A stretch of 35,330 nucleotides of DNA from Candidatus Omnitrophota bacterium (lineage in GTDB: Bacteria; Omnitrophota; Gorgyraeia; Pluralincolimonadales; Pluralincolimonadaceae): the NCBI GenBank assembly GCA_020061685.1, contig JAGUXU010000124.1:1-35330 (forward strand). The letters run 5' to 3'. The stretch's first letter is position 1. Each line of letters begins with the position of its first letter. Positions 25,473 through 34,420 of the stretch are shown piece by piece. The translations under genes and the position numbers were made by a program. Under the pieces are notes generated by a model, which did not search any database, was not told the DNA's origin, and saw nothing but the letters and a program-made list of their open reading frames with translations.

Positions 25473-26915
25473 TTGAAATATAATCACGCCTTATTCATTA
25501 ACCCGTATACCGAAAGTTCCACTACGAGCGCGATGAGGCTTTTTCCGCCCACCGGACTCGAGTATGTCGCTACAAGCGCCAAGGAATGTGTGGGTAAGGT
25601 CACGCTCCTTGACCTAAGGTATAAAAGCGAGTTCTCCGATACGGCCGCGCTTTTGGATTTTATATCCAGAGAGATCGATATAATCTGTGTCGGCATCGGC
25701 TGGGACCGCCAGATCAAAGAGATCTGCGGCCTCCTGAACCGTTTTCCGGAAGGTATTCCCCTGGTCATCGGCGGATATACCGCCACCGAGAAGGTGGAAG
25801 AACTTTTTAAGGACTGCCGGAGGGCCGATATTATAGTAAGGGGGGAAGGCGAAGAGACCATCAAGGAGATACTCAGGGGCGCGCCGCCGGACAGTATTTT
25901 AGGCATTTCATATAGGTCCGACGGAAGAGTCGTCCATAACAAAAACAGGCCGCTGCCCGAGATAGATAACCTGGCTTCCCCTGACCGTTCCCTCAGGTCA
26001 AACGAGTACAACCTGTTCCTGAATGATATAAAGATAGCGGGCCTGACCTTCGATACGGTCTTGAGTTCCAGGGGCTGCCCGTTTAACTGTAAATTCTGCA
26101 CGTTCACCCTCAATCCTCTGGGGCAAAAACGTAATTATTCGGCGCGTAATCCGGTTTCCGTCGCGGACGAGATATCCGGGATAAGCGCAAGCGTCATTTT
26201 ATTCAGCGATGAAAACTTCGCGGTGGACCCAAAGAGGGCGGAAGAGATATGCGACCTGATAATAGCCCGCAAGATAAAAAAACGCTTTGCCGCGCAGGTC
26301 CGCATCGATATAGCCAAACATCCCTCATTGCTTAAAAAGATGGTAAAGGCGGGATTCAAGGTGCTTTTGCTCGGGATAGAGTCTCCGCACGACTGGATAC
26401 TGGCTCAGCTGAATAAAGGGTTTGATTCGGATACGATAAGAAGATCTTTCGTCGTGCTTAAAAAATACCCGATGTTTTACCACGGATATTTCATATACGG
26501 CAACATAGGCGAGACGGAAGAGCAGATGCTTTACATACCCCGGTTCGCGAGGGAGATAGGGGTCGATTCCATCACCTGCCTTAAACTAAGGATAGAGAAA
26601 TTCTCTCCCTTGAGGGAACTCGCGCAGAGCACGCCCGGCTACCATATCACGGAAAGCGGGCAGCTCTATTCCGACGCTTATAGCTACGCCGACTTGAAAA
26701 AAATAGGCAGGAAGATAAAGTTTTCGTTCTATACCCCGGCAAGGTTCCTGAAGATATTCTCTAAATCCCTCAGGATGAGATTTCTCAACTTCAGGGAAAT
26801 AATGCTTTTCCTTCTGGCTGTACCGCTGGTATTGGAAAATGCCATAATCCGGGATGTGCAGAAAGGGCGACTGCGGGATTCTTTAACGCGTATTTTCATA
26901 AGCAATAAACGATAA
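25473..26915 (+). CDS. B12-binding-domain radical SAM enzyme (class B), second copy type
   Basis: The N-terminal B12-like domain shows PPTGLEYVATSA, IDIICVGIGW and IPLVIGGYTAT. The cluster motif is SSRGCPFNCKFCTF. A hydrophobic C-terminal segment (IMLFLLAVPLVLENAII) is present. It has a TTG start with AGGAAAG upstream, 8 nt after the helicase stop. Confidence 0.8.
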   Translation: MKYNHALFINPYTESSTTSAMRLFPPTGLEYVATSAKECVGKVTLLDLRYKSEFSDTAALLDFISREIDIICVGIGWDRQIKEICGLLNRFPEGIPLVIGGYTATEKVEELFKDCRRADIIVRGEGEETIKEILRGAPPDSILGISYRSDGRVVHNKNRPLPEIDNLASPDRSLRSNEYNLFLNDIKIAGLTFDTVLSSRGCPFNCKFCTFTLNPLGQKRNYSARNPVSVADEISGISASVILFSDENFAVDPKRAEEICDLIIARKIKKRFAAQVRIDIAKHPSLLKKMVKAGFKVLLLGIESPHDWILAQLNKGFDSDTIRRSFVVLKKYPMFYHGYFIYGNIGETEEQMLYIPRFAREIGVDSITCLKLRIEKFSPLRELAQSTPGYHITESGQLYSDAYSYADLKKIGRKIKFSFYTPARFLKIFSKSLRMRFLNFREIMLFLLAVPLVLENAIIRDVQKGRLRDSLTRIFISNKR

Positions 26916-26975
26916 TAATCCTTTACCCTATTTTTCCTTTCAAAACTCAGATTATTGATATATAATTATATACCA

Positions 26976-28214
26976 ATGATACCCACCAGAGTCGTCATAA
27001 CCGGTTTAGGCGTTATAGCTTCCAATGGCATAGGAAAAGACCGTTTTCAGGAGGCGCTCTTCAAAGGCGTATCCGGCATCAGGCCTGTCTCCCTGTTTGA
27101 TACATCCCAGTTTAAGGTCAAGACAGGCGGGGAGATCGAGAATTTCGAGGCCGCGGATTTTTTGGGCAGTAAAGGATTGCGGACACTGGACCGCAGCACA
27201 AAGTTGCTTAACTGCGCCGCCAAACTGGCCTTAGATGACGCCAAACTGGATTTTTCCGGCGCGGACACAAGCGACGTAGGTGTCGCCGTCGGCAGCACGC
27301 TAGGGAGTATCCGCAGTATAAGGGAGTTCCATCAGGATGCCGTCAAGGACGGCCCTCGTTACGTAAACCCCTCACTTTTTCCCAATACCGTCATCAATTC
27401 GCCGGCAAGCCAGGTCTCCATCAGATTCAAGATCAAAGGATTTAATATCACTCTCTCGACGGGATTCTCCGCCGGTTTGGACGCCGTTAATTACGCGGCA
27501 GAATTCATAAGGTCGGGGCGCGCGAGGGTGGCGCTCGCCGGAGGGGTGGAGGAGATGTGCATAGAGACCTTTTTTGGTTTTTACAGGACCGGATTTTTAG
27601 CGGGGTCAAGCGGCGAGGGCCCCGAATTGTCCTGTCCTTTTGACGGTAGACACAACGGTGTTGTCTTCGGCGAAGGGACCGCGATATTAGTGCTGGAGGG
27701 TTTGGACTCGGCGATCAAGCGTAACGCCTCCATATATGGCGAAGTCCTGGGCTGCGGGCGGGGTTACGACGCTTATAATATCGGCAGATACGATCCCGAG
27801 GGCGGCGGGCTTAAAAGGGCTATGCGGACGGCGCTGAAGAAAGCGGATGTCGTCCCGGAGAATATAGATTATATCTGCGCTGCTGCGAATTCCGCAAAGG
27901 AAGGGGATATCATCGAATCCAAAGCCATAAAGGATGTTTTCGGGGTCGCCACCAAAACAAATATCAGTTCCATTAAATCCATGATAGGGGAATCGTTCAG
28001 CGCTTCCGGAGCCTTTCAGGCCGCCGCGGCCGCCTTGGCCATAGAGAAACAGGTGATCCCTGCGACGATCAACTATCGGCAGAAGGACCCCGAATGCGAT
28101 TTGAATTACGTGGCCAACGAAGCGCGCGGCTGCAAAGTGGATAATGTACTGGTGAACGCTTTCGGGCCCGGCGGGTATAATTCCAGTATGGTGATCGCGA
28201 GATTTAACGGTTGA
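26976..28214 (+). CDS. beta-ketoacyl synthase homolog lacking the Cys-His-His triad (chain-length-factor-like KS partner)
   Basis: It has a thiolase/KS fold (RVVITGLGVIASNGIG, PNTVINSPASQVSIRF, ALAGGVEEM, IKSMIGES). By hand alignment to E. coli FabF, Cys163 aligns with Phe (STGFSAG, TTC 27465-27467), His303 with Ala (ICAAANSA) and His340 with Glu (GESFS). The track start is TTG 26955; the ATG at 26976 (MIPTRVVITG) is more likely. Confidence 0.75.
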   Translation: MIPTRVVITGLGVIASNGIGKDRFQEALFKGVSGIRPVSLFDTSQFKVKTGGEIENFEAADFLGSKGLRTLDRSTKLLNCAAKLALDDAKLDFSGADTSDVGVAVGSTLGSIRSIREFHQDAVKDGPRYVNPSLFPNTVINSPASQVSIRFKIKGFNITLSTGFSAGLDAVNYAAEFIRSGRARVALAGGVEEMCIETFFGFYRTGFLAGSSGEGPELSCPFDGRHNGVVFGEGTAILVLEGLDSAIKRNASIYGEVLGCGRGYDAYNIGRYDPEGGGLKRAMRTALKKADVVPENIDYICAAANSAKEGDIIESKAIKDVFGVATKTNISSIKSMIGESFSASGAFQAAAAALAIEKQVIPATINYRQKDPECDLNYVANEARGCKVDNVLVNAFGPGGYNSSMVIARFNG

Positions 28215-28226
28215 AAGGCAGGACTT

Positions 28227-28976
28227 ATGATGCTTGAAAAGAAGGTCGCGATAGTCACAGGAGGAACCAGGGGCATAGGGAGGGAAATTGTCTTGATGTT
28301 AGCCCGCGAAGGGGCGGATGTCGCCTTTACCTATTTGAAGAGCGGCCAGGAGGCCGAGAAATTAGTGAATGAGGTAAAGGGTCTCGGGAGAAGATGCTTG
28401 GGCGTTGCGGTGGACGTGCGGGATTTCGAGAAGGCAAAGGAATTCATAGAGAAAGTAAAAAATGAACTGGACGGGCTGGATATCCTCATCAATAACGCCG
28501 GTATAACGAAAGACAAGGCCATAATGCTTACGGCAAAAGAGGATTGGCGCGATGTCATCGATACGAATCTGGGTGGCGTCTATAACATGACGCGCAACGC
28601 CATAATCACGTTCTTAAAGCAAAAAAGCGGAAATATAGTGAATATGACCTCGATAAGTGGTATCATAGGAATGGCGCGGCAGACCAATTATGCCGCTTCC
28701 AAGGCGGGTGTCATCGGTTTTACCAAATCGCTTGCCAGGGAAGTTTCCGCCTATAACATCAGGGTCAATGCCGTGGCGCCCGGGTTTATAGATACGGATA
28801 TGACCGCGGGCCTTGTAGAGAAGTATAAAGGAGAGATCGAAAAAAGCATTCCCCTCGGAAGGCTCGGTACCGTCACGGATGTCGCGCAGGCAGTGAGATT
28901 TTTGCTCAGTGATTCGGCGGATTTTATAACCGGACAGGTTATCATCGTTGACGGAGGTTTATCCTTACAACTGTAA
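28227..28976 (+). CDS. fabG: 3-oxoacyl-ACP reductase (SDR, FabG-like)
   Basis: It shows VAIVTGGTRGIGREI, NNAG, the catalytic YAASKAG, and PGFIDTDM. Confidence 0.88.
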   Translation: MMLEKKVAIVTGGTRGIGREIVLMLAREGADVAFTYLKSGQEAEKLVNEVKGLGRRCLGVAVDVRDFEKAKEFIEKVKNELDGLDILINNAGITKDKAIMLTAKEDWRDVIDTNLGGVYNMTRNAIITFLKQKSGNIVNMTSISGIIGMARQTNYAASKAGVIGFTKSLAREVSAYNIRVNAVAPGFIDTDMTAGLVEKYKGEIEKSIPLGRLGTVTDVAQAVRFLLSDSADFITGQVIIVDGGLSLQL

Positions 28977-28993: not shown

Positions 28994-29242
28994 ATGCAGG
29001 AAATCGATACTGAGATCAAAGACCTGATAGCCAAGGTAATCGAGAAGGAGCCTGACGAGATCGACCCCAACGCGAGGTTCGCGGAAGACCTGGGTGTAGA
29101 TTCTATGATGGCCCTTGAGATCCTGGCGGCTATCGAGAAGAAATATAAGATAACCATCCCCGAAGAGAAACTTATGCAGTTCACCACCCTCAATGAGACC
29201 GTAAAGATAGCGAAGGAATTTTTAGATAAGAAAGATGCCTGA
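28994..29242 (+). CDS. acyl carrier protein
   Basis: The 82-aa ORF has DLGVDSMMALEI (phosphopantetheine Ser in DSM, the equivalent of DSL) and a four-helix-sized protein. Confidence 0.88.
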   Translation: MQEIDTEIKDLIAKVIEKEPDEIDPNARFAEDLGVDSMMALEILAAIEKKYKITIPEEKLMQFTTLNETVKIAKEFLDKKDA

Positions 29243-29681
29243 CCTGGACATCGAAGAAATCCGCAAGATATTGCCGCAGCGCTACCCCTTCCTGATGATC
29301 GATAGGGTCCTGGAGCTGGAGGCGGGCAAGAAGATAGTAGCGCTTAAGAACGTCTCCTTTAACGAAGAATATTTTTCCGGCCATTTCCCGGAGCAGCCCA
29401 TCATGCCGGGCATACTTATCATTGAGGCGATGGCGCAGGCCTCGATAATCCTTTTTTACGGCAGTCAGAATTCGGAGCAGAATAAAAAATTATCCTACTA
29501 TCTGGGCTCAGTAAAAGTAAGGTTCCTCCATCCCGTTATCCCCGGTGACCAGCTTAAGATCACGATAGAACCCCTCAAAATGCTCTCCAACGCCGGAATA
29601 GTCAAGGCGCGGGCGGCTGTCGGCGATAAAGAGATTGCCGTCGGAGAGATCAGTTTTATGGCCAAAGAGAATACCCCTTAA
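29235..29681 (+). CDS. fabZ: 3-hydroxyacyl-ACP dehydratase (FabZ-like hotdog)
   Basis: ILPQRYPFLMIDRV.EL, FNEEYFSGHFPEQPIMPGILIIEAMAQ matches the FabZ signature with its catalytic His and Glu. It has an 8-nt overlap with the ACP gene. Confidence 0.9.
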   Translation: MPDLDIEEIRKILPQRYPFLMIDRVLELEAGKKIVALKNVSFNEEYFSGHFPEQPIMPGILIIEAMAQASIILFYGSQNSEQNKKLSYYLGSVKVRFLHPVIPGDQLKITIEPLKMLSNAGIVKARAAVGDKEIAVGEISFMAKENTP

Positions 29682-29684
29682 TAC

Positions 29685-30896
29685 ATGGATAAACGTATAG
29701 TCATAACCGGATTGGGCGTCGTCTCCTCGATAGGCATCGGCCGGGAAGAATTTTGGTCCGCCCTGATAAGCGGAAAATCCGGCATAAGCGAGGTCGAATC
29801 CTTTGACACCTCGGATTTTCCCGTCCATTACGGCGGCGAGATCAAGAATTTTTCACCCGGGGCCTTTATCGATAAGGAGAAGGTCGGGAAGATAGGGCGG
29901 TCATCTCAGCTGGCTATCGGTTCGGCAAAACTCGCCGTTAAAGACGCCGGTCTTAGGTTAGACGACCTTAACAGGGAAAGGATAGGCGTCTGCCTCGGGA
30001 CGACGATGGGGGAATCACAGATACTCGTGGAGTTAGACGATGCCTGGATCAGGAAAGGTATGGACTATGTAGACGCGGGGATGGTCCCTCAATACCCCGC
30101 TTATTCGCTGTCCTCAAACGTGGCATTGGAGTTAAGATTAAAAGGCCCTAATTACATCATTCCTAACGCTTGCGCCGCAGGAAATTTCGCCGTCGGATAT
30201 GCCTGCGATCTTATAAAAGGAGGCGACGCGGATATCATGCTGGCGGGAGGGGTGGACGCCTTCGCAAAGATAGCGTTTATCGGGTTTAGCCGGTTGTACG
30301 CCATAGCGCCGCAAAAAGTCCAGCCGTTCGACCTGAACAGGAAAGGCATGATGGTGGGGGAAGGCTCGGCCATCGTGGTCCTGGAAACGCTTGAGAACGC
30401 CTTAAAGAGGGGATGCGCGATATATGCCGAGGTCTTGGGATACGGCGTAAGTTGCGACGCATACCATATGACCGCGCCCGAATCCGGCGGCATCGCCGCG
30501 GCGATAGAGAAGGCGCTTAAAGAGAGCGGGTTAACCCCGGCCGACATAGACTATTTTAACGCCCACGGCACGGGGACGCCGGCCAACGACAAGGAAGAAT
30601 GCGCGGCGATCAAGAAGGTATTCGGCGAGCGTTATAATACGCTTCCTGTCAGTTCCATAAAGTCAATGTTAGGGCATACGATGGGTGCCGCCTCCGCCAT
30701 CGAGACCGTTGCCTGTTGTTTAGCGGCAAAGAACGACATTCTCCCGCCGACGATCAATTATGAGACGCCTGATCCTGACTGCGATATCGATTGCGTCCCT
30801 AACAAGGCGAGGCCTCACAAGATCAGCACAGTCTTAAACAGCGCCTCGGCCTTCGGAGGGAACAACGCCTGCCTCGCGCTTAAGGAATTTCCTTAA
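29685..30896 (+). CDS. beta-ketoacyl-ACP synthase (FabF/KAS II-like) with intact Cys-His-His triad
   Basis: It shows IVITGLGVVSSIG, PNACAAGN (active-site Cys), NAHGTGTPANDKEE (His), and IKSMLGHTMGAAS (Lys/His). Confidence 0.88.
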   Translation: MDKRIVITGLGVVSSIGIGREEFWSALISGKSGISEVESFDTSDFPVHYGGEIKNFSPGAFIDKEKVGKIGRSSQLAIGSAKLAVKDAGLRLDDLNRERIGVCLGTTMGESQILVELDDAWIRKGMDYVDAGMVPQYPAYSLSSNVALELRLKGPNYIIPNACAAGNFAVGYACDLIKGGDADIMLAGGVDAFAKIAFIGFSRLYAIAPQKVQPFDLNRKGMMVGEGSAIVVLETLENALKRGCAIYAEVLGYGVSCDAYHMTAPESGGIAAAIEKALKESGLTPADIDYFNAHGTGTPANDKEECAAIKKVFGERYNTLPVSSIKSMLGHTMGAASAIETVACCLAAKNDILPPTINYETPDPDCDIDCVPNKARPHKISTVLNSASAFGGNNACLALKEFP

Positions 30897-32018
30897 TGCG
30901 GGATCGAAATTTCCGGGCTTGATCAATCCTGCGACGAATTTTGAGAAGAGGTTTGCCGGGGGCCAACTCAACCTGAAATAGACGGAGAGCGGGACCAGCC
31001 CCGCCCCCAGACGTACTTTGGGATCGTAATCTGTTATGCCCATCTGATAATAGCGTATGCCGTTCTTGATGCACCATTCTATATTATGCAGGAACGTCCT
31101 GTAATAGAGATGGTAGGTATGGGCGAGGTCTTTGTCAAAACCGATGAACTTATCGATGCAGGTCCGGCCGCTTACAAGGCACAGGTTAAACGCCACTATC
31201 TTTTCTTTGTCCCGCGTTATGAAGAACTTGGTGATTCCCCGCATGTTCCGTCCGATATTCTGAAAGAATTCCGGGGTCAACGTCTCAAAATGTATATCCG
31301 ACTCATTAAAATTGTTTAGGTAGAGTTCGTATATCCGGTCTCTCAGGCCGCCTATCTCGTCGACGATCTCCGTCGTAAGCGGGGCCGGCCCCGGCAATTT
31401 GTTCAATTTGCGCCTCAGGTCCTTACGCGTATTTTTGCCGAGAGAATCGATATATTCTTTTAAGGAATCCGCTTTTATCATGATCCTTGTATTGGGATAA
31501 TTTTCCATCCGCGCAAACCCATTTTTTCCCAGATAGGCCGCCAGATCGCGGTGATTTTCCGAAAGGTTATAGAATAATATCAAGCCTATCTTCTCCTCTT
31601 TGGCGATCTCGCGGAATTTCTTCAGCGCGCCGTCTAATATATCATCGGTATCCTCCGCGCCCGATATTCCTATATAGAGTTCCTCGGTAGTGGGGAAGCC
31701 CACAAAGAGCATCTTCATCTTCAGGAAGCGGCTGAAGGCCTTTTGTAAAGATAAGATAAGTCCCTGCAGGGGGCCCTGGATTATGGTAGCGAAGGAAAAG
31801 TCGTTGATAAAGAAAGGAAGGACGGCCACGATCTTTCCGCCTCTCTTGGCTAAAAGATACCCTAAGCGGAATTCCTTTATCCGGGACTCTTCAAGCGTTT
31901 TATGATAGCCGAACCCTTCCGGAGCATCTTTACCGAAAAGGCCATTCCAGTCGTTCTCGGGGATGTCCTTGATGGTCGCGGTGACGGAAAAGACGAGCGG
32001 CAACTTTTTGTCTCGCAT
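30834..32018 (-). CDS. FemAB-like / DUF482-type GNAT-fold acyltransferase
   Basis: The 394-aa ORF reads I.DIPENDW..LFG......F.YH..LEES.I..F...YLL......IVAVLPFF, a layout resembling PF04339/FemAB-like proteins. The family call is from memory of the pattern only. Its last 63 nt overlap the 3' end of the convergent KS gene. Confidence 0.5.
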   Translation of the reverse strand: MRDKKLPLVFSVTATIKDIPENDWNGLFGKDAPEGFGYHKTLEESRIKEFRLGYLLAKRGGKIVAVLPFFINDFSFATIIQGPLQGLILSLQKAFSRFLKMKMLFVGFPTTEELYIGISGAEDTDDILDGALKKFREIAKEEKIGLILFYNLSENHRDLAAYLGKNGFARMENYPNTRIMIKADSLKEYIDSLGKNTRKDLRRKLNKLPGPAPLTTEIVDEIGGLRDRIYELYLNNFNESDIHFETLTPEFFQNIGRNMRGITKFFITRDKEKIVAFNLCLVSGRTCIDKFIGFDKDLAHTYHLYYRTFLHNIEWCIKNGIRYYQMGITDYDPKVRLGAGLVPLSVYFRLSWPPANLFSKFVAGLIKPGNFDPALRKFLKREAGVVPSEGRGAV

Positions 32019-32084: not shown

Positions 32085-32918
32085 ATGGAGAAAGCCAATC
32101 TTGCCAGATATAACTTCTTGCTGAAGGGGAGTAAAAAGGCAGTATTACTCATCCACGGCATTACGGGGACGCCTTCGGAGATGCGTTATTTCGGCAAGTC
32201 CTTAAATAAGGCCGGCTACACGGTATTCTGCAACGCCCTCCCGCGCCACTGCGGTTCTTTAACCGAACTCAAGAAAGTCACGTGGAATGAAATAGCGGAT
32301 GCCTGCATAGAGGATTTTAAACGGCTCAAGGAAGAGAATTCACAGGTCTTTGTCGCGGGCCTCTCTATGGGCGCTCTTATGGGCATACACCTGGCTTCTC
32401 TTTTTCCCTCGGAGGTCTCGGGTATCGTCGCCTTGGCGCCTACGCTATTCTATGACGGTTGGGCGCTGCATAAGGGCAAGGTTTTAATGAATCTGGTTTG
32501 GCATATACCCGTCTTAAGGGACGCGATAAACATAAGAGAAGGCTGGCCCTACGGCCTTAAGGATGAAGATTCGCGGGAGAGCATCGAGAGATTTTATAAG
32601 AACGCGAAGGCAAGCGAATTCAGTAAAAAATCCCTGCTATTCGGAAGCCCTTTTTTCCCGTTATCATGCCTTTATCAGCATACTCTCTTCGTGAAGGTCG
32701 TTAAAAAAGAACTCCCTGCGATAAGGACGCCCATTCTCATACTTCATGCCAAGGAAGACGATATGACCAGTATCCGCAATGCCCGCTACATATACGACCA
32801 TATCGGCTCCGCGGATAAGACCTTAGTGCCGTTGGAAGACAGCTATCATATGATAACTATCGATAAGCAGAAAGATAAAGTCGCCGAAGAGGCGGTCAAA
32901 TTTCTGGGCAGGTTATAA
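32085..32918 (+). CDS. alpha/beta hydrolase (carboxylesterase / monoacylglycerol-lipase-like)
   Basis: It shows KAVLLIHGITGTPSEMRYFGK.L...GY, the nucleophile elbow GLSMGA, and a late ILHAKEDDM ... SYHM (Asp/His) arrangement like the Est/YvaK-type esterases. Confidence 0.75.
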   Translation: MEKANLARYNFLLKGSKKAVLLIHGITGTPSEMRYFGKSLNKAGYTVFCNALPRHCGSLTELKKVTWNEIADACIEDFKRLKEENSQVFVAGLSMGALMGIHLASLFPSEVSGIVALAPTLFYDGWALHKGKVLMNLVWHIPVLRDAINIREGWPYGLKDEDSRESIERFYKNAKASEFSKKSLLFGSPFFPLSCLYQHTLFVKVVKKELPAIRTPILILHAKEDDMTSIRNARYIYDHIGSADKTLVPLEDSYHMITIDKQKDKVAEEAVKFLGRL

Positions 32919-34420
32919 TGGATTACGACGCGATCGTGATAGGAGCGGGGGTGGGAGGCCTGACCTCAGCCCTTATTTTATCCCGCCAGGGCAAGAAGGT
33001 CCTTCTTCTCGATTCGCAGCCGGTACCGGGCGGTTACGCGACGACATTTAAGAGAAAAGGTTTCACTTTTGAATCCTCGGTGCACTGCGTTGACGGCCTT
33101 GGCCCTGACGGCGACGTAAGAAAATTCCTGGACGACAACGAGATCGGGAAGGAGATTGAATTCATCGAGCTCGGCAGTTTCGCGCGGATGGTCTATCCGC
33201 AGGATGATTTCGTCGCGGATTTTGAACGTGATAATTTTATGGTGCTGCTGAAAGGTAAATTCCCGCAGGAAAGCGCCGCGATAGACAGATTATTCCGCGC
33301 TATGGATAAATTCTACGGACAATTCGACAATTTCGCTTATTCAAACCTTCCGATGTGGCTTAAATTGATCCTGGCTCCGTTTCTTTACCTGCAAGTGATA
33401 AAGATATCCCGGAAGACCGTCAGGGAATTCATCGAGGACTATGTGAAGGATGATAAATTCCTGGCGATCGTGACGGATATATGGCGTTTTACGGGAACGC
33501 CTCCGAGCCGCCTGAGCGCCCTTTATTTTTTATTGGTCTTCAGAGGTTATTATTACAGTCCGACAGCTTATGTGAGAGGAGGCGTATCCAAGGTCTTTGA
33601 GGCGATGGTCGGACAGATACGCAAGAACGGCTCCGATGTCAGATTTAACGCTGCCGTTGTGAAAATAATCACGGATAAGAATGATGCTGTAAAGAGAGTG
33701 GTTACCGGCAATGGCGAAGAATTCCATGCCAGGGCCGTTATCTCCAACGCCAATGCCATCGATACGCTTACCCGGATGCTTGACAACGAGGCTATGAAGA
33801 AGGAATACCGCGAAGAATTATCTTCGCTTGAGAAGTCGATATCCGCATTCCAGGTCTATTTAGGCCTGAAGATCCCCGCCAGAGACCTGGGGATGAATCA
33901 CTATCTCTTTTCCGTAAATATGACGTACGACCACGATGAGGATTTCCGGTATTCACTGGAGGGCGATTACGGGAAATGCTCGTTGGAGTTAGTGGACCAT
34001 TCACAGATAGACCCTGGCCTGGTGCCTGAAGGGAAGGGGAGCCTCCTTATCATGACCCTGGATTCTTATTCGAACTGGAAGGATTTGAACGAAGAGGAAT
34101 ATAATTTAAAGAAACAGAAGGTGGCAGATATGCTGATATCAAGGGTAGAGCGGTACCTGCCCGGACTTTCAAAAAGTATCGAACTTATGGAGGTCGCCAC
34201 CCCCAGGACAATGCTGCGTTTTACCTCATCCTCCGAGGGCGCGATATACGGCTTTGCCCAGACAGTCGGGCAGGCGGGGATCAACAGGCTGGGACAGGAG
34301 ACTCGCGTAAGAGGGCTATATCTGGCCGGTGCCTGGACACGTCCGGGGGCGGGCATACACGCGTGTCTTCTCTCAGGGATGGACGCGGCGGACCTGGCGT
34401 TGAAGTTCCTTAAAAGATAG
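32918..34420 (+). CDS. FAD-dependent oxidoreductase of the phytoene desaturase (CrtI/CrtD-like) family
   Basis: The N-terminal dinucleotide fold is YDAIVIGAGVGGLTSALILSRQGKKVLLLDSQPVPGGYA. The C-terminal GLYLAGAWTRPGAGI is typical of the CrtI/amine-oxidase superfamily. It has a 1-nt ATG/TAA overlap with the hydrolase gene. Confidence 0.8.
   Translation: MDYDAIVIGAGVGGLTSALILSRQGKKVLLLDSQPVPGGYATTFKRKGFTFESSVHCVDGLGPDGDVRKFLDDNEIGKEIEFIELGSFARMVYPQDDFVADFERDNFMVLLKGKFPQESAAIDRLFRAMDKFYGQFDNFAYSNLPMWLKLILAPFLYLQVIKISRKTVREFIEDYVKDDKFLAIVTDIWRFTGTPPSRLSALYFLLVFRGYYYSPTAYVRGGVSKVFEAMVGQIRKNGSDVRFNAAVVKIITDKNDAVKRVVTGNGEEFHARAVISNANAIDTLTRMLDNEAMKKEYREELSSLEKSISAFQVYLGLKIPARDLGMNHYLFSVNMTYDHDEDFRYSLEGDYGKCSLELVDHSQIDPGLVPEGKGSLLIMTLDSYSNWKDLNEEEYNLKKQKVADMLISRVERYLPGLSKSIELMEVATPRTMLRFTSSSEGAIYGFAQTVGQAGINRLGQETRVRGLYLAGAWTRPGAGIHACLLSGMDAADLALKFLKR

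Follow-up and report, generated by a model that had tools for sequence, protein, structure and literature searches.

Introduction

Ketosynthase (KS) paralogues without an active site were tabulated in anammox bacteria by Rattray et al. in 2009, who listed Kuste3606 (Val/Asn/Glu) and Kuste2805 (Phe163/Asn298/Asn300/Lys328/Glu333/Gln342) (PMC2649909 Table 2). Kuste2805 adjoins the FabF Kuste2804 and the radical S-adenosylmethionine (SAM) protein Kuste2803, giving a second pair of an intact and a 'dead' (triad-less) KS (Javidpour et al. 2016, PMC4790861), and antiSMASH 'ladderane' clusters have been reported, without further analysis, from Omnitrophota and other non-anammox phyla (10.1101/2022.12.20.521206). 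Here we analyse a gene of this kind on a 35,330-nucleotide stretch of DNA from Candidatus Omnitrophota bacterium (GenBank assembly GCA_020061685.1, contig JAGUXU010000124.1; the whole stretch is called the window). Its product, P0001, is a KS paralogue of 412 amino acids (aa) in which the Cys-His-His triad is replaced by Phe-Ala-Glu. We conclude that P0001 is very probably a catalytically inert subunit, similar to a chain-length factor (CLF), of a heterodimeric KS whose active half, P0002, is encoded three genes downstream.

The closest characterised system is the anammox pair amxFabF2 and amxFabFmut, the latter being KustE3606 / Broful02170 / Scabro02228 (PDB 9s5h and 9s5i, chain C); chains C and B of 9s5h are the Brocadia fulgida amxFabFmut and amxFabF2, respectively (Granatino et al., bioRxiv 10.64898/2026.05.19.726425). 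According to the same preprint, from work on Brocadia and Kuenenia proteins, each protein is inactive alone, the two co-purify on co-expression, and together they decarboxylate malonyl-acyl carrier protein (malonyl-ACP) and form acetoacetyl-ACP. The crystal structure is a KS/CLF-like heterodimer in which Phe135, Thr138 and Val139, on a helix-loop-helix of amxFabFmut, line the tunnel of amxFabF2, and mutants of Phe135 and Val139 shift the preference of the complex among C6, C8 and C16 probes. The Brocadia complex favours C6-C8 probes and the separate Brocadia proteins react with no probe. Scalindua amxFabFmut crystallised as a homodimer, with the helix-loop-helix disordered in the absence of the partner. 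In the Val-type Brocadia amxFabFmut the vestigial active-site pocket is open and has polyethylene glycol bound in it (all bioRxiv 10.64898/2026.05.19.726425).

Results

Fold and active-site residues of P0001

A preliminary description of this DNA, based on hand alignment, had placed the gene at 26976-28214 and the TTC codon in the Cys position at 27465-27467, and both placements are correct. The reading frame begins with ATG at 26976 and its stop codon ends at 28214, giving the 412-aa product. A longer alternative frame has a TTG start at 26955; the ATG is preferred because homologues are 410-414 aa in length. The gene and the sites discussed below are as follows.

26976..28214, + strand: triad-less KS paralogue P0001, 412 aa, probable CLF-like subunit of the amxFabFmut type; Pfam ketoacyl-synt N and C domains
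27378..27392, + strand: FPNTV motif (Phe135, Thr138, Val139), on a helix-loop-helix predicted to line the partner's tunnel; invariant in 80/80 loci, lowest confidence in the model
27465..27467, + strand: TTC, Phe164 at the catalytic Cys position (STGFSAG); HMMER and MAFFT alignments
27882..27884, + strand: GCT, Ala303 at the first catalytic His position; HMMER and MAFFT alignments
27990..27992, + strand: GAA, Glu339 at the second catalytic His position; HMMER and MAFFT alignments

Catalytic columns were placed by HMMER against Bacillus subtilis FabF (4ls5) and solved FabF structures, and a second placement, by MAFFT with B. subtilis FabF, the ishigamide KS Iga11 and both Brocadia subunits, agreed with the first. 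Phe164, Ala303 and Glu339 occupy the positions of the Cys and the two His in both alignments, as had been proposed, and neither alignment restores a Cys/His/His triad in P0001. For the first His motif, the earlier hand alignment was right about the change from His to Ala and wrong by one residue in its register, since HMMER pairs CAAANSAK with NAHGTSTY. Further changes at the active site of P0001 are Asn305 and Ala307 at the equivalents of Thr305 and Thr307, Gln348 at the equivalent of Glu349, and Pro398 in place of the gate Phe; the catalytic-site Lys334 is retained. As the nucleophile and the His pair are absent, P0001 cannot be acylated, decarboxylate malonyl-ACP or carry out condensation.

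P0001 has a complete, strongly conserved FabF fold. An AlphaFold2 model of the monomer (126 sequences in the alignment) had a predicted local distance difference test score (pLDDT) of 93 and a predicted template modelling score (pTM) of 0.94, and it superposed on B. subtilis FabF 4ls5 with a TM score of 0.96 and a root-mean-square deviation of 1.7 Å. FabF was also the first match in a Foldseek search of a PDB library that runs to April 2026 and does not have 9s5h among its entries; FabF 4ls5 is likewise the nearest fold given for amxFabFmut (bioRxiv 10.64898/2026.05.19.726425). The lone weak stretch of the model, residues 121-140 (27336-27395; block means of 78 and 62), is the helix-loop-helix, that is, the region which is disordered in amxFabFmut crystallised without its partner. 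P0001 is similar to canonical FabF (TIGR03150; 4ls5) in fold and length, with ~37% identity. Unlike canonical FabF, it has neither the triad nor the gate Phe, and its score of 370.9 bits against TIGR03150 lies below the cut-off of 493.75.

In the region upstream of the ATG (26940-26978) there is no Shine-Dalgarno sequence, and a TATAAT lies at 26961-26966, 9 nt before the start codon, which suggests a leaderless or near-leaderless transcript beginning at the dead KS.

Conservation of the altered site

The loss of the triad is neither a sequencing error nor a sign of decay. Conservation was assessed in 120 database homologues of P0001 at 55-76% identity, and in a scan of one genome per species, which found relatives in 231 genomes. 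Locus counts given here refer to the best 80 loci, each from a different species, which belong to Omnitrophota (among them Candidatus Velamenicoccus archaeovorus, with a complete genome) and Nitrospirota/Thermodesulfovibrionia. The TTC codon is a single base away from TGC, yet an error in the sequence can be dismissed because Phe is found in the catalytic Cys column in 117/120 homologues and in 76/80 species loci. Glu is present in the second His column in 118/120 homologues, and this Glu and Lys334 are nearly invariant across the dead-KS family. The first His column is variable (A, N, G, S, C or T). Phe135, Thr138 and Val139, the counterparts of the tunnel-lining residues of amxFabFmut, are present in all 80 loci.

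The dead copy shows no faster divergence than the active one (KS2) in the 40 loci where both are encoded, the mean p-distance being 0.43 for the dead KS and 0.41 for KS2. The distance matrices of the two proteins are correlated at these loci (Mantel r 0.75, a value reached in 0/2000 permutations), and this correlation may reflect shared ancestry alone.

Relationship to amxFabFmut, chain-length factors and FabF

The best match of P0001 among PDB sequences was chain C of 9s5h, amxFabFmut, at 46% identity (E 6e-112). HMMER scores were 377.6 bits to 9s5h_C, 291.8 to 9s5h_B, 261 to FabF and 164 to the actinorhodin CLF 1tqy_B. The downstream KS, P0002, gave the reciprocal pattern, with 501 bits to 9s5h_B (amxFabF2) and 242 to 9s5h_C. 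When a profile of the dead family was searched against PDB chains, 9s5h_C was first by 118 bits, and none of the actinorhodin CLF (1tqy_B), Iga12 (6kxd_B) and the ApeC chain appeared in the top 60.

We placed P0001 in a quick maximum-likelihood tree of 106 sequences (LG+G4, short search); the actinorhodin CLF, Iga12 and ApeC were compared through HMMER scores against PDB chains instead. All triad-less sequences, whether stand-alone or fused to a second KS domain, formed one clade that includes P0001 and Brocadia amxFabFmut (Shimodaira-Hasegawa-like approximate likelihood ratio test, SH-aLRT, 99). All partner KSs, including P0002, amxFabF2 and Iga11, formed a second clade (SH-aLRT 97), and canonical FabF lay outside both. 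Long-branch joins were flagged among the fused domains, and the deep branching is to be read with care.

Many triad-less KS proteins with the FPNT motif were recovered when 1.8 billion cluster representatives were searched exhaustively. In 38 of the top 150 representatives, an intact Cys-His-His KS and a C-terminal triad-less domain with the FPNT motif were joined in a natural fusion of ~800 aa. The fusion representatives include P0122, P0125, P0127 and P0130; one comes from a Helarchaeota metagenome-assembled genome (MAG) and one from Moorella. Two of the fusions carry public names, and that from Moorella is annotated 'beta-ketoacyl synthase chain length factor'. Many residues occur at the Cys position across this wider family and Phe is the commonest of them. 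The preliminary description had set the bulky Phe against the Gln or other small polar residue usual in known CLFs; within this family it is not odd, and it is the Val or Thr of the anammox proteins that represents a minority.

P0001 resembles amxFabFmut in belonging to the same clade, in the loss of the triad, in Glu at the position of the second His and in the retained Lys (Brocadia has Val/Asn/Glu). The tunnel residues Phe135, Thr138 and Val139 are identical and even share the same numbering, and both proteins are encoded together with amxFabF2-, amxACP- and amxFabZ-type genes and a CrtI-family oxidoreductase. They differ at the Cys position, where P0001 has Phe and the anammox proteins Val, Ile or Thr, and at the gate, where P0001 has Pro and the anammox proteins Arg or Asp. 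The residue at the Cys position is a trait of the lineage and does not define the family. There are also differences in the surroundings. Gene order in the window differs from that of the anammox cluster, FabG is included and no anammox-type B12 radical SAM gene is present; no orthologue of the radical SAM neighbour found in anammox Cluster I (kuste3603-3608) was seen in the window, and the CrtI-like protein, at 28% identity, may or may not be an orthologue of its Cluster I counterpart. The host is an Omnitrophota bacterium and not an anammox planctomycete, and it also has an ordinary type II fatty acid synthase (FAS II).

Kuste2805 is similar to P0001 at the active site (Phe163, Asn300, Lys328, Glu333, Gln342) and in being paired with an intact KS gene, whereas it keeps the gate Phe that is Pro in P0001. 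We consider it improbable that P0001 is an orthologue of Kuste2805. Over the first 128 residues, a third of the protein, as available from the supplement of PMC4790861, the identity of P0001 is 46.5% with Cluster I amxFabFmut and 39.8% with Kuste2805; being nearer to the Cluster I type, it probably acquired its Phe in parallel with Kuste2805. Two pairs of an active and a dead KS, as in Kuenenia (kuste3605/3606 and kuste2804/2805), are also found in one Omnitrophota-type genome (G010, that of locus L053), at ~106-108 kb and 240-244 kb of its contig C1.

P0001 shares with the CLFs of type II polyketide synthases (PKSs) and their relatives (1tqy_B, 6kxd_B, ApeC) the principle of an inactive KS fold that accompanies an active KS and shapes its tunnel, the last being a prediction for P0001. 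Unlike them, it is not a member of their sequence group, has Phe where aromatic-PKS CLFs have Gln, is not translationally coupled to its KS, and is encoded in a FAS-like cassette (ACP, FabG, FabZ) and not in a polyketide cyclase/aromatase cluster. As judged from sequence, P0001 would work like a CLF while standing outside the classical CLF lineages. The suggestion that it might represent a distinct CLF lineage was therefore right in so far as the family profile separates it from the Gln type; the lineage itself is already known, triad-less paralogues having been tabulated in 2009 and the type characterised in a 2026 preprint. In each of the family-defining sequence and context characters that we compared, P0001 groups with the amxFabFmut type, and not with classical CLFs or canonical FabF, and may be assigned to that type.

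Probable pairing with P0002

The probable partner of P0001 is encoded 1.5 kb further along the same strand.

29685..30896, + strand: active KS P0002, 403 aa, amxFabF2-type, probable partner of P0001; best PDB match 9s5h_B (E 2e-149, 56% identity)

P0002 retains the complete triad (Cys163, His294 and His331), as stated in the preliminary description, and also the gate Phe390. Met337 and Asn389, which are specific to amxFabF2 and unlike FabF, are present as well. The proposal that P0001 is a non-catalytic structural or chain-gating partner of this KS gains support from the identity of its nearest characterised protein, amxFabFmut, which is the inactive, chain-length-influencing half of a heterodimer. 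Pairing with P0002 and shaping of its tunnel are most likely the role of P0001: its crystallised relative behaves in this way, the tunnel residues are invariant, fusions of the two domain types occur naturally, and the two genes co-occur. The low confidence of the monomer model in the helix-loop-helix gives further indirect support. Co-occurrence extends to loci at which the two genes are apart, since a KS2-type gene (54-58% identity) was found on another contig in 4/5 checked genomes whose dead KS has no adjacent partner.

By analogy with the Brocadia relative, the helix-loop-helix of P0001 (residues ~110-140, with Phe135, Thr138 and Val139) would pack on P0002 and form part of the wall of its acyl tunnel, and in this way could set the chain lengths that are elongated. 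The pair would act on the amxACP-like carrier of the cassette, with FabG and the amxFabZ-like dehydratase completing each round. More speculatively, Phe164 may fill the vestigial active-site pocket together with Phe341 and Pro398, and a filled pocket might leave a single productive route for ACP docking.

Several observations weigh against this reading. The dead KS and KS2 are not adjacent in the window, three genes lying between them. At 25 of the 80 loci, FabG and FabZ are the sole companions downstream of the dead KS, and neither an ACP nor an active KS gene occurs within 10 kb. In vitro evidence for the anammox complex covers only malonyl-ACP decarboxylation and the formation of acetoacetyl-ACP, chain-length control having been followed by crosslinking as a proxy (bioRxiv 10.64898/2026.05.19.726425). 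A simple charge count speaks neither for nor against pairing: the net charge of the helix-loop-helix and contact helix, dead minus active, was positive in 21, zero in 6 and negative in 13 of 40 pairs, and the same count misses the published asymmetry of the Brocadia proteins; being inconsistent over the pairs and unable to reproduce that asymmetry, the charge count was dropped as a test.

Alternative explanations

The loci without a neighbouring KS2 or ACP, together with the Scalindua homodimer in the crystal, may indicate that P0001 works without P0002, either as a homodimeric non-catalytic protein that binds acyl-ACP or serves as a scaffold, or as a partner of the housekeeping FabF (encoded on contig C101). 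We consider this improbable. Most of the checked genomes with a solitary dead KS encode a KS2-type protein elsewhere, the Scalindua homodimer has its helix-loop-helix disordered, and the separate Brocadia proteins are unreactive to all probes. The invariant tunnel-lining residues make sense only against the active site of a partner, and natural fusions join the dead domain to domains of the KS2 clade and not to canonical FabF. Alternatively, P0001 could have kept a non-canonical catalytic function, such as the coupling of two preformed chains, which Rattray et al. proposed early for Kuste3606 (PMC2649909), or acid-base chemistry through Glu339 and Lys334. The near invariance of these two residues goes beyond what a merely empty site would need; however, P0001 has no nucleophile and holds a bulky Phe in its place, and the first His position varies freely. 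Purified amxFabFmut alone has no detectable activity, and the authors of the preprint hold the coupling idea to be refuted (bioRxiv 10.64898/2026.05.19.726425). The chance of such catalysis therefore appears to be slight.

A KS fold without Cys, encoded near an active KS, follows the same logic as the CLFs, and the clade of P0002 includes Iga11. Membership of P0001 in the classical type II polyketide CLF (KS-beta) lineage or in the aryl-polyene ApeC lineage is nevertheless very improbable, in view of its much lower score to 1tqy_B than to FabF or amxFabFmut, the absence of 1tqy_B, 6kxd_B and the ApeC chain from the top of the family profile search, and Phe, not Gln, at the Cys position. The loss of all three catalytic residues might also be taken to mark P0001 as the decaying remnant, similar to a pseudogene, of a fabF duplicate. 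We attach almost no probability to this explanation, which already looks refuted by the conservation data: the frame of 412 aa is intact, relatives occur in 231 species genomes, divergence equals that of the active partner, many columns are invariant, and the full fold is predicted with confidence. An inert, CLF-like half of a KS heterodimer remains the reading that we prefer for P0001.

Gene cassette and genome context

P0001 and P0002 are the first and last genes of a cassette in the order dead KS, FabG, ACP, FabZ and active KS, with gaps of 12, 17, -8 and 3 nt. The remaining genes of the cassette and those on either side of it are the following.

25473..26915, + strand: B12-binding radical SAM enzyme, adjacent to the cassette and probably not part of its core; B12-binding and Radical_SAM domains
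28227..28976, + strand: FabG-type 3-oxoacyl-ACP reductase; TIGR01830 306.6 bits, above cut-off; next after the dead KS at most related loci
28994..29242, + strand: dedicated amxACP-like acyl carrier protein; PP-binding domain, best PDB matches 7qv0_D, 7auf and 9s5i_E
29235..29681, + strand: FabZ-type, amxFabZ-like dehydratase; TIGR01750 172 bits, best PDB matches 7qv0_A and 8ayb
30834..32018, - strand: FemAB-like GNAT acyltransferase, kept only in the window's subclade; Acetyltransf_6 and FemAB_like domains
32085..32918, + strand: alpha/beta hydrolase, kept in the window's subclade; Hydrolase_4 domain
32918..34420, + strand: CrtI/phytoene-desaturase-family FAD oxidoreductase, recurrent accessory gene; Amino_oxidase domain, crtI_fam 184 bits, below cut-off

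Identity to the Brocadia Cluster I locus was 56% for the active KS, 51% for FabZ, 46% for the dead KS and 45% for the ACP, and 28% for the CrtI-like oxidoreductase (full length, against PDH); the two radical SAM proteins of the window reached 23-25%, which is the generic level of that family. There is no enoyl reductase or acyltransferase within the cassette. The end of the ACP gene and the start of the FabZ gene share 8 nt (29235-29242), and the active KS gene has 63 nt in common with the convergent FemAB-like gene on the minus strand (30834-30896).

The CrtI-family oxidoreductase gene is found in many related loci. Copies of the hydrolase, 65-73% identical, occur in 10 related loci with the CrtI-like gene next in each, and copies of the FemAB-like GNAT gene, at 46-56% identity, in six (L001, L022, L037, L049, L053 and L066). 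The loci that have only dead KS, FabG and FabZ include L009, L013, L040, L051, L015 and ~20 others. The full order of dead KS, FabG, ACP, FabZ and KS recurs at L032, in Candidatus Velamenicoccus archaeovorus of the LiM enrichment.

The source genome is a MAG of 1.28 Mb and 81% completeness, and the nearest relatives of its proteins belong to Candidatus Omnitrophota. A housekeeping acpP-fabF (the fabF, the genome's real one, is that on C101 and scores 659 bits, above cut-off) and fabH-fabD are present on other contigs of the genome, indicating that the cassette is a second, dedicated system.

The KS pair, carrier and dehydratase have been treated as specific to ladderane-producing anammox bacteria, and yet clear relatives are present in at least 231 species genomes, mostly of Omnitrophota and Nitrospirota, including the cultured enrichment organism Candidatus Velamenicoccus archaeovorus. 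The present locus adds to the evidence that organisms other than ladderane producers also have the 'ladderane' FAS core. No anammox-type radical SAM enzyme accompanies these relatives, which argues for a core limited to the making of a dedicated acyl chain, with the ladderane chemistry located elsewhere. Within its family, the function of which was established in 2026, P0001 is unexceptional. Its relatives open non-anammox systems to the study of the heterodimer and of its product, and comparing the near-fixed Phe with Val in mutants offers a simple way to probe the contribution of the dead active site.

A wider proposal, which we put forward tentatively and regard as rather unlikely, is that the FAS-like core of active and dead KS, amxACP, amxFabZ and CrtI-like oxidoreductase, regarded as special to ladderane producers, is an old and widespread module whose dead subunit is commonly of the Phe type. 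In the window's subclade this module would build a short acyl chain, unsaturated or polyene, for transfer to an amino or lipid head group, with P0001 setting the length. This part of the proposal draws on FabG without an enoyl reductase, on a KS in the clade of Iga11, and on the hydrolase and FemAB-like acyltransferase; if true, it would imply a lipid class not yet described.

The radical SAM gene upstream of the cassette

The radical SAM gene at 25473-26915 sits 60 nt upstream of the dead KS. Its product is 67-92% identical to proteins of 120 Omnitrophota clusters; no NCBIfam model scored above cut-off, the best being HpnJ and BchE at ~110 bits. We considered it as a counterpart of the anammox radical SAM enzyme and rejected this, as its identity to the Brocadia Cluster I enzyme is 23%, it has no match to the N-terminus of Kuste2803 and it reaches only 55 bits against TIGR04072, for which the cut-off is 360. 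A homologue search that returned only Omnitrophota proteins, at >=67% identity, was also counted against an anammox identity. A place in the core of the cassette was rejected too, since the gene lies next to the dead KS in 2/80 loci, on the other strand.

Over its N-terminal 128 residues, Kuste2803 shares 56% identity with the radical SAM enzyme of Brocadia Cluster I (L082, 12711-14171), which indicates that the two anammox clusters with an intact and a dead KS carry paralogous radical SAM enzymes.

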